Shown here: piece by piece, positions 1,941-28,250 of the stretch
Layout: every line of letters begins with the position of its first letter
How positions within the stretch are numbered: position 1 is the stretch's first letter
DNA from: Chiloscyllium plagiosum
Taxonomy: Eukaryota
Direction: 5' to 3'
DNA: 31,966 nt
Assembly (NCBI RefSeq): GCF_004010195.1
Contig: NC_057717.1
Span: forward strand, 104,784,937 to 104,816,902
Position numbers and translations under genes: made by a program
The notes under the pieces: generated by a model
The model's input: only the letters and a program-made list of their open reading frames with translations
What the model was told of the DNA's origin: nothing
The model's database searches: none

Positions 1941-2081
1941 TCTGGCCAGCCCTCTCCAGTTGACACAGTGAAGAGAGTCAGTAGAGCCCAGAGCACATTA
2001 TCGTAATGGAACTCATATCGTTTCCACTCCCGCTTCTGTGCCTTAATATCGCTTTCCTTCATGTAGACCAAGTATTGTCCT
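1941..2081 (-). CDS. CACNA1B: Cav2 calcium channel alpha-1 exon, repeat III extracellular loop and pore helix (141 nt, phase 2 to 2)
   Basis: tttcccttttctgtttcag|A GGA CAA...TGG CCA GA|gtatgt; translates [47 protein letters not shown], including the repeat III selectivity-filter Glu (TGEGW). Confidence 0.95.
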
Positions 2082-3637: not shown

Positions 3638-4049
3638 CGGCAAAAGCAGGAACAGGATCCCGTGGTGACGGCAATAGCAGGAATAGTGTCCCGTGGTGAT
3701 GGCAATAGCAGGAACTGGGTCCTGTGGTGACGGCAATAGCAGGAACTGGGTCCTGTGGTGACGGCAATAGCAGGAGCAAGGTCCCGTGGTGGCGGCAAAA
3801 GCAGGAACAGGGTCGCGTGGTGATGGCGGCAATAGCAGGAACAGGGTCCCGTAGCAGTGGCAATAGTAGGAACAGGGTCCCCGTAATGGCAGCAATAGCA
3901 AGAAGAGGGTTCCCGTGATGGCAGCAATAGCAGGAACAGGGTTCCCGTGATGGTAGCAATAGCAGGAAGAAGGTTCCCGTGGTGGTGGCAGTAGCAGGAT
4001 CAGGGTTCTAATGGTGGCAGCAATAGCAGGAGAGGGTTCCCGTGGTGAC
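3638..4049. repeat. GC-rich minisatellite, about 13 units of 30-34 bp
   Basis: Consensus GGCAATAGCAGGAACAGGGTCCCGTGGTGAC in tandem; explains the overlapping ORFs at 3370-3959. Confidence 0.95.
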
Positions 4050-11389: not shown

Positions 11390-14143
11390 GTGATAAAAGT
11401 ACAGCACAGGAACCGGCCCTTCAGCCCACAATATTGGGACCAACATAATGCCAAATGAAATTAATCCTACCTGCGTGCTTTTGGTCCATATCCCTCCATT
11501 CTTTGCATATTCATGTGCTTATTTAAAAATCTCTTAAATACCTGTATCATATCAACCTCCACTATTATCCCGGCATTTCAGACTCCTACCATTCTGTGTA
11601 AAAAATGTCTCCTTTGAACTTTCCCCATCTCAAGATTCTGATCATCAACCTTATCTATGCACCTCATAATGTTATAGATTTCTATTAAGTCTCCCCTCAG
11701 CATCCACCACTCCAGAGAAAACAATCTGAGTTTTTCTAACTTCTCCTTTTAGCTCATTCCCTCTAATCCAGGCAGCATCCTGGTAAACCTCTTCTGCAGC
11801 TTTTCCAAAGCCTCCACGTCCTTTCTGTAATGTGGTGAGAGAATTTAATGCAATTCTCTAAGTGTGGCCTAACCAAAGTCTTATAAAGGTGCAATGTGAC
11901 AGCCTGACTCTTGTACTCAATTCCCTGACCAATAAAGGCAAGCATACGTTTTATTTACCACCCTATCTACTTACGTGGCCATGTTCAGGGAGCTATGACC
12001 TTGAACCCCAAGACCCTTCTGTACATCAGGGTCAGGGTCCTGCCATTAACTGTCCTCTTTTCCATGACATTTGATCTCTCAAAGTGCAGCACCTCACACT
12101 TGCCGGGATTAAACTCCATCTGCCAATTTTGCGCCCATATCTGCAACTGATATATATCCTGCTGTACCCTTTGATAACCTTCTACACTATCCACAACTCC
12201 ACTGATCTTTGTATTGTCTGCAAATGTACTATCTCACCCAGCTACTTTTTCATCTAAGTCATTTATATATATCACAAACAGTAGAGGTCCCAGCATGGAT
12301 CCCTGCGGAATGTCACTTGTCATGGATCTCCAGCCTGAAATATACCCTTCCACCACTACCCTCTGTTTTCTATGGGCAAGCCAATTCTGAATCCACGTGG
12401 CCAAGTCACCATGGATCCCATGCATCTTAATCTTTTGGATGAGTCTACCATGAGGGACCTTGTCGAAAGCCTTACTGAAATGCATTTAAACGACATCCAC
12501 TGGTCTATCCTCATTGATCAACTTTGTTGCCTCCTCGAAAAATTCAATCAATGAGTAAAACATGAACTGTCCTGCACAAAGCTATGCTGATTGTCCCTAA
12601 TTAGGCCATGCTTTTTCAAATGTGTGTAAATTCTATCCCTAAAAATTCTCTCCAATAGCTTCCCAAACACCGATGTGAGACTCACAGGTCTATAGTATCC
12701 CAGATTTTCCCTATTGCCCTTCTTGAACAGAGGAACAACATTGGCCACTCGCCAGTCCTGTAGGACCTCTCCATTAGCTAACGAAGATACAAAGATCTTT
12801 GTCAAGGACCCAGCAATTTCCTGTCTTACCTCTCTTAGTAAGCTGGGGTAGATACCTTTGGCCCCGGAAAGTTATCCGCCTTAATGCTCTTCAAGAGATC
12901 CAACACTGCTTCTTTCTAGATCTCAAAATGCCTTGAAGTGTTAGTGCTCCACACAAGTCTCACTATCCTTCATATTCTTCTCCTGGGTGATACTGATGCA
13001 AACTATTAATTTAGGATCTCACCCACATCCTCTGTCTCCAAGCACAAGTTCCCTCCTTTATCGCTGAGTGGTCCTACTTCTCCCAGTTATCCTCTTGTTT
13101 TTAATGTATCTACAGAATGCCTTGGAATTATCTTTCACCCTACTTGCCAAGATCATTTCATGGCCCATTCTAGCTCTCGTAATTCCCTATTTGAATTCTT
13201 TCCTGCTTTCTTTATATTCCTCACCTACCCTGTTCGATTTCAGCTTCCTAAACCTTACATATAGGTAGCTCTCCTGTAACATGGTGTGTGTTCCCATGCA
13301 ATGGCGTTGTATAGAAAATACAAGTAATAGCAATAGAAGTAAGAGGCCTCTGGGAAAAAGAGTTAGGGACTCTAGTTTAGCAAACCTGTCCATTTCTGGT
13401 CAGTCACAGAAATGCCAAGTTGTTACAAGCAAAATTTCCCAATGTATTATTGTATTCCCGGCTCCTTGTGCAGTGGAGTTTATCCAGAACCATTCCACAC
13501 CCAAACACCCTCTCTTGTAAAGTGCTGAAGCTGCAGATAGCCAGCAACTGAGCCTTTGCTTAACAAAAGGCCTTGCTTATGCTCCATTACTCGATGCACC
13601 TTTTTACACCCCCTATCTCCTTCTCTCTTCCTGCTCCTCAGCCCCCACCCCCCAACTCAATGCATGATCCCAGAAGGCATTCCAGCAAAATATTCCAACG
13701 TTCGTTTTCCCTACCTTAGTTGCAGATAGAAGCAAAGAAATATACACACATACACACGCGCGCGACACAACAGCCAGCTGGTAATACAGGTGATGGAATT
13801 GCATAACAGCGATTGGTCTGCAATTCACGAATTGCGTTACTGCCAAATCACGTTTACAAAATGCGCATTATAGGAGAACTATCTAAACGCTTCTTTTTTC
13901 TTTTGACTAAATTTAAAACCTCCCTGGTTATCCAAGAGTCCTTTCCCTTGCCATCCTTGACCTTCCTCCTCACTTGAACATGCCGGTCTTGAACTCTCAT
14001 CAACAGGTCTTTAAACAATTCCCATATGTCAAATGTGGACTTGCCTGATAACGACTCCTCCCAATTAACACTCCCTAGCTCCTGCCTAATACTGACATAA
14101 TTTGCCTTCCCCCAATTTAGTACCTTCCCACAAAGTCCAGCCA
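11390..14143 (-). mobile_element. CR1/HER1-like LINE ORF2 remnant
   Basis: [65 protein letters not shown] and LYKTLVRPHLE in order, with stops and frameshifts; 3' tail at about 11390-11430. Confidence 0.93.
13262..13885. mobile_element. Non-autonomous Tigger/TcMar-like DNA transposon inserted in the LINE
   Basis: Imperfect TIRs taggtagctctcctgtaac and attataggagaactatcta, preceded by TA; the LINE joins across it (ccttacata|..cgcttctttt). Confidence 0.7.
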
Positions 14144-14759: not shown

Positions 14760-14976
14760 CATGATTTGGAGATGCCGGTGTTTGACTGGGGTGTACAAAG
14801 TTAAAAATCACACAACACCAGGTTATAGTCCAACAGGTTTAATTGAAAGCACACTAGCTTTCGGAGCGCTGCTCCTTCATCAGGTGACCATCACCTGAAA
14901 GCTAGCGCTCCGAAAGCTAGTGTGCTTCTAATTAAACCTGTTGGACGATAACCTGGTGTTGTGTGATTTTTAACTT
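14760..14976. mobile_element. Palindromic Penelope-derived non-autonomous element
   Basis: Inverted arms 14798-14887 and 14891-14976; TSD cttcaatgtgtt (14748-14759) and cttcaaagtgtt (14974-14985). Confidence 0.85.
14852..14886 (-). ncRNA. Minimal hammerhead ribozyme, intact core
   Basis: CAC-CTGATGA-A-GGAGC AGC GCTCC-GAAAG-CTA-GTG: stem I CAC/GTG, 5-bp stem II, palindromic AGCT stem III, CUA cleavage triplet. Confidence 0.8.
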
Positions 14977-15045: not shown

Positions 15046-15231
<186 letters not shown>

Positions 15232-15536: not shown

Positions 15537-15633
15537 CTTGAGCTTAGGCAGCCGTTTGATAGTTTTAAGGGGTCGTAGCACTCGAAGTACTCTCAGAGAT
15601 TTGATGGTGTTCAGATCTTTCCCTTTGCTCCCA
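15537..15633 (-). CDS. CACNA1B: Cav2 alpha-1 exon, IIIS3-S4 loop and IIIS4 voltage sensor (97 nt, phase 2 to 0)
   Basis: ttattgctag|T GGG AGC...CTC AAG|gtaatg; [38 protein letters not shown] fits CACNA1B rather than CACNA1A (GNSKGKD). Confidence 0.96.
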
Positions 15634-17345: not shown

Positions 17346-18435
17346 TTAGTCTCACACCCTCTAAATTGAGAAGGGACACCAGTGTGAATTTAATAGTAAT
17401 TTTATACAAACAACATGTGGGGGTACAGGGAAAAGGCAGAAGAACGGCACTAAGTTGTAACACTCATTGGATAGCAGTGCAGACACAATGGGCCGAACAA
17501 TCTCCTCCTGCACAAAATGCTGTGGTGATTCTTCTGTAATACATTTGATACCTATTTCTTGTGGGAAATTTTTCTGGACTTGAGTCATTCAGATTTTTAT
17601 GTAAATCAAGTACAGATACAGCCTGACCAATATTAACCATTAAACCATTAAACCTTCCTTCATTCATTCTTCTTAGGTCTAATTTGCTAAACATAGGGTT
17701 TCTACCAAATTGTGAGGTTCTTTTTAGCATAAATTTTATGTATTTCTATATATACACAATAATGTGTAACCCATAGCTGTGTACTGCTGAACTACTTGCA
17801 GCAAATTGACATTTTTGAAGACCTGGATATATCTAATCATCAGAAAGGTATTGTATTTCATGAACATAATTTCTCAAATTCAATTTCAGTGCTGAGGTAT
17901 TGAATCTCACCAACCTAAATTAACAGACCAAGTGACATTATTCAGCCCTAATGTCTGAATTCACATTTGTATTGTATTAAAACTGCACCTTATATCCAAA
18001 TGAAGATGTAGCTGGAGCCAGATTCTGCAAGGAGGTCCAATAGTGTGAGATGCTTTTAAAAAATATATTCATACATTTATGGAAAAAGGTTTTATTGTTG
18101 AGCCAATGCAAAATAGGTCAGCTCATCATTGAAAGTAAAATAAACTGGTCTATTTGTGCATAAAATATATTGTAGGCTACTCAGTTCAAAACTGGATATG
18201 TGGTCACTTTACTGTAGTTACATTATTTATGAAGTCAGCCTCAGCACTATCTGTTACAATGGCATACCCTGCACCAAGCAGAACTGCAACATAATCACTT
18301 ACCAAAAAGCACAGATATACATATATAAATAGATATAAAATTGAGAATGAGAGAAATATGAAGAGATATACAGAGAAGAATAGAACACAATGCAAATTTG
18401 CTGACTATTATAAAGAGAAAGAGCAGAAATATTAC

Positions 18436-18447
18436 CCCATAAGGCTC
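18436..18447 (-). CDS. CACNA1B: 12-nt alternative microexon e24a (inserts SLMG in the IIIS3-S4 loop)
   Basis: cactgac ccttttctcgtctttcttgacttgctggatcag|GAGCCTTATGGG|gtaata; phase 2-2; matches mammalian e24a (SFMG/SFVG) in size, phase, position and peptide. Confidence 0.88.
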
Positions 18448-21400
18448 CTGATCCAGCAAGTCAAGAAAGACGAGAAAAGGGTCAGTGTAAAAAAAAAACA
18501 AAAAAAGCTTTTACACATACTTCAAGTACAGAGGTGAATCAGACTGAGAAAACAGAAAGCACAGTTATAAAAACCTGAAGGACCAATACAGACAATGCAG
18601 TAAATAGGGAAACAGGACACAGGAGACACAAAGCACAGGCCCCAGCAATCATGTCAGCCATGCTACATTAAGTAACTTGGTCAGGAAACAACTTCCCTCA
18701 ATGTATTTATATTATTTTGGATAGGAAACCATTGCACCAGACTGTGTTCATATCACATCTGTGACCAATTACAAGCTGTAAAGTAACTAAAATTATTCAC
18801 TAATGCAAATGATACTCCAACAACACAAGTTCTTATTAGATGCTGCTTAATGTCATCACAGTGTAGATTATAGGAAATGGTGTGACAATGCAATTCAAAG
18901 TATATGAAATTAATTTCTCTGATCTTTTAAGACTTAATGCTTAAGAAAGAAATTGTTTTAATGCAACTTTCAGTGCCTAACATAGACGCAACACAATGAA
19001 CATGTTTTAGTGCTGCTGCAGTGGAGAGCAAAGTCATTTTTATAATACTCATAAGACACTGTGAAGTAAGATTTCCAAATGGTATCATAGTTGAATAGTG
19101 ATCTAATCTAATCTAGTTATTAAATTACAAAAGCTTACAAAATTGATTTCTACAGATAAAACAAAACAGGAATGTTATAAACAACCAATAAATATGGACA
19201 TTTCAATTTCCAGTTGGGGATCTAATTAAAGCTTCTCAAAGAGGCAGATTTTTCATGATCATGAATAAATAAAACAGAAATGCTTGTCCAGTATCCTATT
19301 TCCTGTTTCCCTCTTTTATTCCCCTGCATATTTCCTGAGAACATGCAATCCTCCCTCCAAATTTCCAAGTAGATGCCTGATTTACAGGGTTTCTGACATA
19401 GTGTCTGACTATGGATAAAACATGAAGTTTCAGCTTGGATGCAAACTAAGCCACAGAAAAGTGGCCTTAATGGTTTTATCCCATTCCTCTCTACTCTTCA
19501 GTCTTCTCTGCTGTTTTGCATTCCTCCAGACTGAGCAGACAGTGCTTATCTATTTATCCATCCACCCACTATCATATTCTTAATTGGGAGAAGACACAAG
19601 TTGACAAGAAAAAATATTTCCTATTGGAAACAAAGATTGATCAAAACTTTAGTAAAAATTGCCTCATTGCAAGATAAATTCATCATGACAACCCACACAA
19701 TGAGTGCAGAGGAATAAGAAACAGCAGAAACTTAGTCATAGTTATTAAATGGAAATTAGAAGTGCTGGAGGAATTAGTTCATTTCAAAAGTCAAACTAAA
19801 CTTTATTTAATTTGCCATCAAATTATAAATTTTAAGTTAACCTTTGCCCATCGCACCCCCCCCCCTTCCCGAACAAGTGCCAAGACTATGTTAGTTCACA
19901 TCTTATCCACAGGTCAGCCAGTAAGAGGATGCTATTAATAATGTTTGGATACACATCTACTGGTTAGGAAACACTGAAGAGATTGCCACAATTATTGGTT
20001 ACTGGATTATAATATATACCGTGTATGGAATGGCTTAATATATATTGCAATACTTTTTAATAAGCTTGCAAAAATCCAAGACTGAAACTATTACAACGAA
20101 AATTTATATTTGAAAGTTTTTTTTTGCTTCCCTCTCCGATCCAACATTGAGATAATGTTCCAGAAACACTGATAGCTCTTTGTATTGCATCCAAATGGTC
20201 ATTCTACAGGTGGGATGGTCAGTGTTAACTGTGAAGGGAAATCATCACTGACTGATCCTATTTACATTCAATGCATAGATTGTAGTTGAAGTTAATGAAG
20301 AGTGAGCAGCTAATACTTTTTAGGTTAAGAATACACTAATTGTGTAGACTAATTGTCGTAGCCTTACTGCCACACCAATTCTGTGTTTACCAGGGATGAA
20401 ATCCCATAACCTCCTGATCTGTACAGCATAGTGAGAATTAGATGCATCAATGGGGGAGCCAAAGACAGTATATGTTACATAAAATGTTACTAAGCAGTGA
20501 GTCTGTAACCTAGTCTCAGGGGTTATTTTGTTAATTCAGATCACAAAAGCCCTGGGATCAAGTTACAGATTGCTGTAACATCCTTTTTGTTCTTCCATGT
20601 GTCACAGCCCGTAACCAGAGAGGGTTTAAACAAATGCCTTACCCATTGCAGCACCACAACGCTACTTAAGAAATCATTCAGTTCAAGGATTGCTGATTGT
20701 TTGGTTCATTAAATTTTCTAATCTCTGCATTTCTTTAATCTCTGACATGAGAGACTAAAGAAATGCAGTCAACGTGCTAAACTAACATTTCTGCTGACAA
20801 TTCCATGCCTGACAGAACAAACAACTATTGTCCTCTGATATGACAGAACTTAAATATTAATTCTTGATGTAAATACCATAGTCAAATATACACCAGGAAA
20901 CAGCAATTGCAATTCAAGATAATGGCCTTCATTTTTCCCCTTTCCAATTTCTCTCTTCTTGTGAAAGCATTGACTGATTGCTGGCCAATAGTACCACAGA
21001 CTAGTTAATTTCTGATATCTAGCCCAGTGACTCCCAGGGTCAATTCCCACTTGTTCTAGAAGTGTGTCATAATATAACTATTCTTCTAAGGTAAACCCAG
21101 ATGATGCGTTGACTAGATAGTTTAATCACAGTTGAATCCAATCTGTCCATCCTCAATACCTCACATGCAATTTCTATTTGAAGTCATTGGGTGTAAGTAA
21201 TACAAATGGGAGTTCTGGCTGAGATTCAACTTGCTCTCAAATATATCCCTAATATTTGTAAGGATAAATTCCCAGATGAACATTGGCATATACAGATCAC
21301 AAGACATACTCACTGTTCTAACACCATCCGTATAGTTAGCCAATTAAACAAGAGCATCATAGAAGCACGCACAGTTGGCTTCAGTGTCACTTGGCTGATG

Positions 21401-25585: not shown

Positions 25586-25847
25586 ATTAAAACCGTTCCA
25601 AGCTTTTGTATCCTCCATTCCTTGAAGACAAACAATTCAATATTGAAAAAAAAATACAATATTTTTCCAGAATTACAGAAGTCACGATTTTATTAAGGAG
25701 AGAATAAATGTGAGGTTCATCAAGATAAAGGCCGACAGTTAAGGAATGCTTGGTGAGAGACCAAAAAACTGCTAATGCTGGAATCCAAAGTAGACTAGCA
25801 GGAGGCTGGAAGAACACAACAAGCCAAGCAGCATCAGGAGGTGGAGA

Positions 25848-25882
25848 AGTCGACATTTCGGGTGTAACCCTTCTTCAAGACT
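25848..25882 (-). ncRNA. Hammerhead motif, mutated
   Basis: AGTC-TTGAAGA-A-GGGT TAC ACCC-GAAAT-GTC-GACT; C3 changed to U. Confidence 0.6.
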
Positions 25883-27275
25883 AGGGGTGGGTGTGGGGGG
25901 AGCTGCAGAAAAAGGGAAGGAGAGGGCAGAGTGTGAAGTGGGGATAGGTGAAGACAGATAGAGGGTACGACCTGTTGGTCAAGGGGAAGAATTAATCCGG
26001 TTGGTGGCAGGGAGCAATGGAAGAGAGGGGGAAGGGCTGGGAAGGGAGTCGAGGGTTGGGGTGGGAGGTTATTTGAAATTGAAGAACTCAATGTTAAGTC
26101 TACCGAGCTGTAGGGTGTCCAGGCAAAAGATAAGGAGTTGATCCTCTAATAGGTGCTGTGGTTTGTTATGGCAATGGAGGGGGTCAAGGATGGTCATGTC
26201 TACCTCAAACCTCCAGACTCCTATAACTATCTGGACTACACCTCCTCCCACCCAGTATCCTGTAAGAACTCCATCCCATTCTCCCAACTCCTCCGCCTCT
26301 GCCACATCTACTCGGATGAGGAGACATTCCACTTGCAAGCATCCCAGATGTCCACCTATTTTGAACAATGTGCTTTTCCTCCTTCCCTCATCCAGACAGG
26401 CCTCTGCCACACCACCTACATTCCCCATTCCACCGCTCTAAACCTCCCTCCCTCCCAATGCAATAAAGACAAAGTCCCCCTTGTCCTCACCTATCACCCC
26501 ACCAGTCTCTGCAGCTAATGCATCACCGTCAAACACTTCTGCCAACTTCAAATGGACCCTACCACCAAGATCATCTTCACCTCCCACCCCTCTCTGCCTT
26601 CCACAAGGAAGAACACAGCAAGCCAGGCAGCATCAGGAGGTGGAGAAGCCGACTTTCTGAAAGTCCTTGGTTTACGCTACCCCCACCACCGAACCCCCAG
26701 GTACATTCCCGCAACCAGAAAAGGTACATCACCCCCGTAACCTCCATCCAGGGCCCCAAACAGTCCTTCCAGGTGAGACAGAGGTTCACCTGCCTCACTT
26801 TCAACCTGGTTTACTGCATCAGGTGCTCTCGATGTGGTCTTCTCTACATCAGGAGACTGAATGTAAATTTAAGGAATGGTTCACTGAGCATTACAGCTGG
26901 GCCTGCAGGGGCTGACTGGACCTCCCAGTCACCACCCATTTCATTTGCCCTTCCCACTCCCTTTCTGACATGACGTCCTTGGCCTCCTCCATTATCATAA
27001 CAAACCACAGCTCCTATTGGAGGAACAACACCTTATCTTCTACCTGGGCACCCTACAGCCCGGAGGACTCAACACTGAGTTCTTCAATTTCAAATAATCT
27101 CCCTCCCCATTACCCGACTCCCTTCCCAGCCTCTCCTCCTCCCTTCCACTGCTCCCTGTCACCAACCGGATTCATTCCTCCCATTGACCAGCCAGGTCAT
27201 ACTCTTCACCTATCCCCACTTCACCACCCTGCCCCCAATACCCCTTTATCTGCAGCTTCCCCTACGCTCACCTCC

Positions 27276-27310
27276 AGTCCTGAAGAAGGGTTATACCCGA
27301 AAGGTCGACT
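27276..27310 (+). ncRNA. Hammerhead motif, near intact
   Basis: AGTC-CTGAAGA-A-GGGT TAT ACCC-GAAAG-GTC-GACT; 4-bp stem I; stem III palindrome broken by C to G. Confidence 0.7.
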
Positions 27311-28250
27311 TCTCCACCTCCTGATGCTGCCTGGCTTGCTGAGTTCTTCCAGCCTCCTGCCTGTCTAGTTAAGGAATACTTGCCTCTTTGTGATAACTTC
27401 CAATTCAATTTTAGCAAGGATCCCCACAATCATTGCACCCTAACATTACTTTTGGGATGCTATAGAGTTACCAATTTTTTCTAAACTTGTGGGCAGAAAT
27501 GTCCTAGTCCCTTGATCGTGTGGGCAATGGTGAGTCAGTTGGGAAAATATGGCAATATCAGAAGGTATTAGAGCTCTTGATATTGAGAAAACTGATTCTG
27601 CATTCGTGTTTTGAATAACGCGACAAGAATCTCACATGGTGAACAGCGAGAGGTCTATCCATTGGTGATGGGTCAAGTTCCTCAGCACAAAAGTATGATT
27701 GTGTAGGTTTATGTGATGGATATCTTTGTTTGCATGTAAAGCAATGAAGCAGAAGCATGAATGTCACAATTGCCCCTGAGCTCCAAGAAAAGCATTGAAG
27801 GGCCGATATCATGTTTAAGTTTGTTGAGAAAAACCATGATGTTGTTGTGATGCTAGTGATTGGCTGATGCCAACTTGTGTGGTTGAACAATCATGGTCCA
27901 TAGACCATGAAGGTCATCTGAGGTAGCAAGCATTAATCGAGTTGCAGCTGCCAGGGACCTCCTCTGATTTACTTGTCAGGAATTTGCGTGTCTAGTTTCT
28001 TGGAAGAAGTGAGGAGAATCAGAACTGACATACAATGTGTGAATCTTGGGTTTTAACAAGATACAAATATGAAAATAAGGTCGTTACCACACAATGACTG
28101 AAATTCTGAAGTTGCCACCTAAAGCTTGAGGGGAAATTTGGGAAAATGTTATTCCGAGGCACAATCTGATATTTTTCACAATCATTATCAGCATATGTCT
28201 AAGTAAGAATACCCAGTTAGTACTTAATTACAGGTAGTGTAATTGTGAAT

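Follow-up and report, generated by a model that had tools for sequence, protein, structure and literature searches.

The closest described counterparts of the exon presented here are the e24a exons of Cav2 genes. In human CACNA1A (Cav2.1, P/Q-type), e24a is 12 nt long, encodes S-S-T-R, shifts activation from -11.8 to -15.4 mV, and modifies a migraine mutation; the S-F-M-G insert of Cav2.2 (CACNA1B, N-type) is apparently without effect on channel properties (PMC11580629). Inclusion of exon 24a is reportedly enhanced by Nova2 in Cav2.1 as well as Cav2.2 (PMC12149502), and such enhancement is also reported for Cacna1b (PMC5633781). A published account of Aplysia CaV2 treats its exon 27, which encodes A-F-D-S, as an orthologue and describes conservation across all Bilateria (PMC10657410); given this published counterpart, the deep age of e24a is already known. 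For neural microexons regulated by SRRM3/4, the layout described places a UGC between the branch point/pyrimidine tract and the acceptor AG, and shark microexons are reported to respond to SRRM3/4 like human ones (bioRxiv 10.1101/2024.09.17.613571). The e24a exon class, its regulation by Nova, and its great age are already in print. Among the sequences retrieved here, four-residue inserts at the e24a site occur in annotated CACNA1A and CACNA1B proteins and in human Cav2.3. Since e24a exists in several Cav2 genes, its presence does not identify the paralogue. No description of an e24a microexon from a cartilaginous fish was found in the literature searched, subscription papers and supplementary tables (including those of shark microexon surveys) aside.

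This work concerns a stretch of 31,966 nucleotides (the window), which holds three Cav2 domain III exons of a gene on the minus strand together with a 12-nt candidate exon at the e24a position (Table 1). Our main reading, to which we assign a probability of roughly 0.72, is that the candidate is an e24a cassette microexon of a vertebrate CACNA1A gene, plausibly from a cartilaginous fish, which is skipped by default, promoted by SRRM3/4 in neurons, and adds S-L-M-G to the channel. The individual elements reported in the initial annotation are all there: CACTGAC, the pyrimidine tract, the TGC, the acceptor, the 12-nt exon, and the GTAATA donor were read directly on the minus strand, and the proposed reading of S-L-M-G followed by GSKGKD holds when the site is joined in phase 2 to exon 15633, the frame being kept. 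A distance of 2802 nt separates the candidate from exon 15633, the domain III S4 exon, which follows it downstream, and no other Cav2 exon is found between the two or from the candidate up to the window end. The residue preceding SLMG, given as S in the initial annotation, falls outside the window, as does the upstream IIIS3 exon; the intron bearing the microexon, which exceeds 16 kb, is therefore seen only in part. An Rfam search gave no match.

Table 1. Coordinates of the microexon candidate, its putative splicing signals, and the constitutive Cav2 exons within the window
Feature	Position	Strand	Remarks
12-nt phase-2 cassette microexon candidate, e24a position	18436..18447	minus	encodes S-L-M-G, Cav2 domain III S3-S4 linker
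Branch-point consensus CACTGAC	18481..18487	minus	branch A at -35
Polypyrimidine tract with UCU/CUC elements	18463..18480	minus	second T-rich run upstream, about 18491-18506
UGC	18456..18458	minus	-11; follows the pyrimidine tract and precedes the acceptor AG, as in SRRM3/4-type exons
5' splice site GTAATA	18430..18435	minus	donor of microexon candidate
Pyrimidine-rich stretch (71%) downstream of microexon	18310..18429	minus	contains TCAT at 18361 and 18350
Constitutive exon, 97 nt	15537..15633	minus	S3-S4 linker end and IIIS4; spliced to next exon in X1 and X2 contigs
Constitutive exon, 161 nt	15071..15231	minus	IIIS5 region (AVFDC...)
Constitutive exon, 141 nt	1941..2081	minus	domain III extracellular loop and pore; CACNA1A-type one-residue insertion

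The upstream side of the candidate is organized like that of the SRRM3/4-regulated neural microexons (bioRxiv 10.1101/2024.09.17.613571): the exon is likewise 3n in length, with a distal branch point and tract and a UGC before the AG. The UGC had been interpreted as an SRRM3/4 signature, and the distances of the UGC and of the branch adenosine from the acceptor are consistent with this, both fitting the published layout. By direct reading, the AG-free zone before the acceptor spans 58 nt. The candidate may differ from this class, which is characterized by a strong 5' splice site, in having a modest donor; by a simple count, GTAATA agrees with the consensus at five of nine positions and departs from it at +5 and +6. 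It is almost identical to GTAATG, the donor seen spliced at exon 15633-15537. A UGC (at -6) is also present in one of the three constitutive acceptors of the same gene. The sole copy of the Rbfox motif TGCATG between 15000 and 21000 lies at 19347 on the minus strand, about 900 nt upstream of the microexon. A second AG-12-GT candidate on the minus strand (18389-18400, encoding K-F-A-F), 36 nt downstream of the microexon, was rejected, as it is without a branch point and has an AG-free zone of 2 nt and a poor donor.

The likelihood of a chance occurrence was estimated over the visible intron, which extends for 16,333 nt before exon 15633, with candidates defined as AG-N12-GT. This search gave 69 candidates, 52 without a stop codon and 6 passing a simple splice filter. 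The SLMG site is the sole candidate among the 69 with three of the four residues of rat SFMG (reference protein P0050) and the sole filter-passing one with a UGC at -5 to -18; an SSTR-like 12-nt candidate was found in none of the 52 stop-free candidates of the visible intron. An SFMG-like match arose in 2.3% of 2000 dinucleotide shuffles and an SSTR-like match in 2.8%. One or the other was present in about 5%, a rate that, for the peptide alone, lends something to the alternative that the site is a chance or decayed pseudo-exon that is never included, with any true CACNA1A e24a (of the SxxR type) lying farther upstream, where part of the intron extends beyond the window. Against this, a single site combines the right phase with a matching peptide, a branch point, a tract, and a UGC: either type of peptide match together with the splice filter was obtained in 0 of the 2000 shuffles. 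This joint figure is optimistic because shuffling destroys pyrimidine clustering, and a fairer joint chance, estimated by hand, is about 0.003; six filter-passing candidates were observed, compared with 0.84 expected from the shuffles.

Transcript data bear on the same alternative. Four of the 19 listed runs were mapped, among them two sets of contigs (X1 and X2) from two related organisms, whose status as RNA was guessed. These contigs match the window exons with at most one difference and run from 15537 directly to 15231, omitting a GT-AG intron; the gene thus appears to be transcribed and spliced in two related organisms. Both X1 and X2 contigs end at 15633, not 15634; because an included microexon would match one base more, their alignment ends suggest that they probably carry the skip form. 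Among the joints listed for the four runs, there was none to the microexon, although an anchor of only 12 nt might fall below the length needed for listing. The listing of loose ends was crowded by a transcribed repeat at 14900-14976, which hid the bases upstream of 15633 there. That no inclusion was seen and that two contigs look like skip forms would suit a pseudo-exon. However, contigs drop minor isoforms, and the single raw-read run had about one read on exon 15633-15537, adjacent to the microexon. In human cerebellum, moreover, 90% of CACNA1A is of the e24a skip form (PMC11580629). We consider a pseudo-exon improbable, and the 12-nt site is probably a real e24a-type microexon, one that probably belongs to a known, ancient kind. 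Read depth in X8 at 18384-18517 was discarded as a sign of microexon expression, since it comes from reads whose poly-A tails align to the run of A at 18489.

The initial annotation took the microexon to favor CACNA1B over CACNA1A and to be an apparent orthologue of Cav2.2 e24a. The first of these claims is not supported: a 12-nt e24a is also present in human CACNA1A, and it is with CACNA1A that the flanking exons group. In homologue searches, several P/Q-type proteins of fish match the product of exon 15231-15071 with 100% identity; among the best 120 matches to exon 2081-1941, no protein that is N-type by both name and sequence appears before rank 56. A tree of the three exons was built from 132 columns, with 16 A (CACNA1A), 6 B (CACNA1B), 1 E (Cav2.3), and 5 invertebrate rows; outgroup row P0214, in which the S4 motif was not found, was left out. 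The tree contains no cartilaginous-fish sequences: no protein named as cartilaginous fish was present among the best 120 matches of each of the three homologue searches, nor among the 9 looked up of 150 unnamed matches in a representative search. The window groups with the 16 CACNA1A rows at 99/96 in the tree with outgroups, for which the bootstrap is not fully settled, and at 95/88 without the invertebrate outgroups. In the latter tree, it branches, with weak support (54/65), as sister to the whole set of 16 A rows from bony vertebrates, a placement that fits a cartilaginous fish. The types of repeat in the window also look shark-like.

Individual alignment columns can be set beside the trees. 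Six columns of the window are A-like (V62, F81, V91, the insertion at 96, K100, and K103), and none of the five B-type states (I62, L81, D91, no insertion at 96, and P103) is found in it. Four of the A-like states, namely V62, V91, the insertion at 96, and K100, look derived and common with A, because at these columns B and E agree with each other in having the alternative residue or one chemically similar to it. A different account would place a real exon in CACNA1B, in a fish whose CACNA1B evolves slowly and has come by its A-like residues by chance. It is consistent with the insert, which equals rat SFMG at three of four residues, with the exon after the microexon, which begins with G-S-K, the usual B form, and with the single B-like column, Q88. 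However, G-S-K also occurs in 5 CACNA1A rows, Q88 is shared with three of the five outgroups, and the states that look derived are shared with A. The outcome of the AU test varies with the outgroups: with them, it rejects the window joined to B (P = 0.022, compared with 0.138 for the control, B alone), and without outgroups, the same arrangement is not rejected (P = 0.283). With the tree support for A also weighing against it, we regard a CACNA1B host as unlikely, if a little less so than a pseudo-exon, and we identify the host gene as CACNA1A (Cav2.1, P/Q-type) with good confidence. Because the host gene groups with CACNA1A, the SLMG exon is probably paralogous rather than orthologous to the CACNA1B e24a; of the orthology claim, what stands is that the exon is very likely of the e24a type. 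The case also serves as a warning that the e24a peptide is no guide to Cav2 paralogue identity. In the same alignment, the window exon encodes D-L-N-T at a site (15612-15614, minus strand) where column 7 is I in all 22 vertebrate A and B rows and L in all 5 invertebrate rows.

For an e24a microexon of CACNA1A, the following mechanism is proposed. Skipping would be the default, because the exon is too short for exon definition and its donor is modest. In neurons, SRRM3/4 would promote inclusion by way of the UGC that separates the distal pyrimidine tract from the AG. Nova might assist, as it does for mammalian e24a. Once included, the exon would add S-L-M-G to the extracellular linker joining S3 and S4 in voltage sensor III, making it longer with no frameshift.

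Alternatively, the exon might be real and lie in CACNA1A, yet owe its inclusion less to SRRM3/4 than to Nova or factors of the PTBP type, which would act on the pyrimidine/YCAY stretch downstream. Nova2 is a reported enhancer of exon 24a in Cav2.1 and Cav2.2 (PMC12149502; PMC5633781), and the long pyrimidine-rich stretch pointed out downstream is real, its pyrimidine content over 120 nt standing at the 99.4th percentile of the window. The two close TCAT motifs described with it are likewise present, but the conserved Nova layout that they were taken to represent is not supported: their density is that of the background, with 2 YCAY in 150 nt downstream of the microexon compared with 17.5 per kb across the window, and of the 557 pairs of adjacent YCAY in the window, 118 are spaced within 11 nt. 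No YCAY cluster above background was found in the 150 nt of downstream intron examined. As the upstream layout, for its part, fits SRRM3/4, we consider inclusion driven mainly by Nova or PTBP-type factors very improbable and retain SRRM3/4 as the presumed main activator.

Compared with the human CACNA1A e24a (PMC11580629), the window exon is alike in intron, 12-nt length, and phase 2, probably lies in the same gene, and is identical at 7 of 12 nucleotides, including the first four; the two differ in the peptide, which is S-S-T-R in human and the uncharged S-L-M-G in the window. With the CACNA1B e24a, it shares position and length as well as three of the four residues of SFMG, yet its host gene groups with CACNA1A. 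Cav2.3, a remoter paralogue (the Astyanax E row is identical at 101 of 131 positions), has the linker A-NALG-TNKGRD (PDB 7xlq chain), which aligns without gaps to the form with SFMG and likewise offers four residues with a hydrophobic-G end. Aplysia CaV2 exon 27 (PMC10657410) differs in sequence and belongs to a single invertebrate gene. That the exon is older than the split between sharks and bony vertebrates, as proposed before, agrees with this published counterpart, which already implies such an age; it is not a new inference. The CACNA1A inserts retrieved mostly end in R (SSTR, SSSR, SNSR, SSAR in paddlefish, and SNVR in lungfish), and some from teleosts end in G (SLSG, GGSG, and GGGG), the latter being seen at the protein level. 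In two bat CACNA1B models (P0076 and P0096), the insert at the e24a site is five residues long, SSALG; it resembles the NALG of Cav2.3 and may be a prediction artifact.

Because the window CACNA1A reads SLMG, like SFMG and NALG, a hydrophobic G-ended insert is perhaps ancestral and SxxR derived. Tentatively, the ancestral vertebrate Cav2 e24a may have encoded an uncharged small-x-hydrophobic-G insert, kept in SFMG (Cav2.2), NALG (Cav2.3), and SLMG (the window Cav2.1), with the polar, R-ended SxxR arising later, on the bony-vertebrate stem. We hold this history at somewhat less than even odds: the G-ended teleost CACNA1A inserts show that the sequence changes readily, so convergence is possible, and another exon, of the SxxR type, may be present in the upstream part of the intron, beyond the window. 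The SLMG insert is predicted to have little effect on gating, because it is uncharged like the SFMG of Cav2.2 and unlike the SSTR of human Cav2.1, with its 3.6 mV negative activation shift. If the ancestral reading is true, an ancient microexon that was nearly silent came to affect gating in a single paralogue, and the window exon is a natural control. Such a history would also show the direction of change in a splice insert by which P/Q-channel gating is tuned, and the contrast between SLMG and SSTR would test arginine as the cause of the activation shift. Apart from this, the case has modest value in correcting the annotation, since an exon of 12 nt is easily overlooked; its host gene is probably CACNA1A.

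Several repeats were noted elsewhere in the window. The repeat at 14798-14976, which has other copies in the window, shows very high depth in all four mapped runs, with many reads poly-A tailed; it looks like a SINE or LINE 3' tail. Interspersed GC-rich repeat pieces occupy 25791-27370; further copies are found elsewhere in the window, and their open frames match nothing in Pfam. Broken LINE reverse-transcriptase fragments (Pfam RVT_1) lie at 12237-12871 on the minus strand, in the intron between exons 15071 and 2081. On the plus strand, an ORF at 4269-4577 matches Pfam ALKBH8_N and is presumably the end of a LINE ORF2. A minisatellite of about 13 copies of a 31- to 32-nt unit spans 3638-4049.
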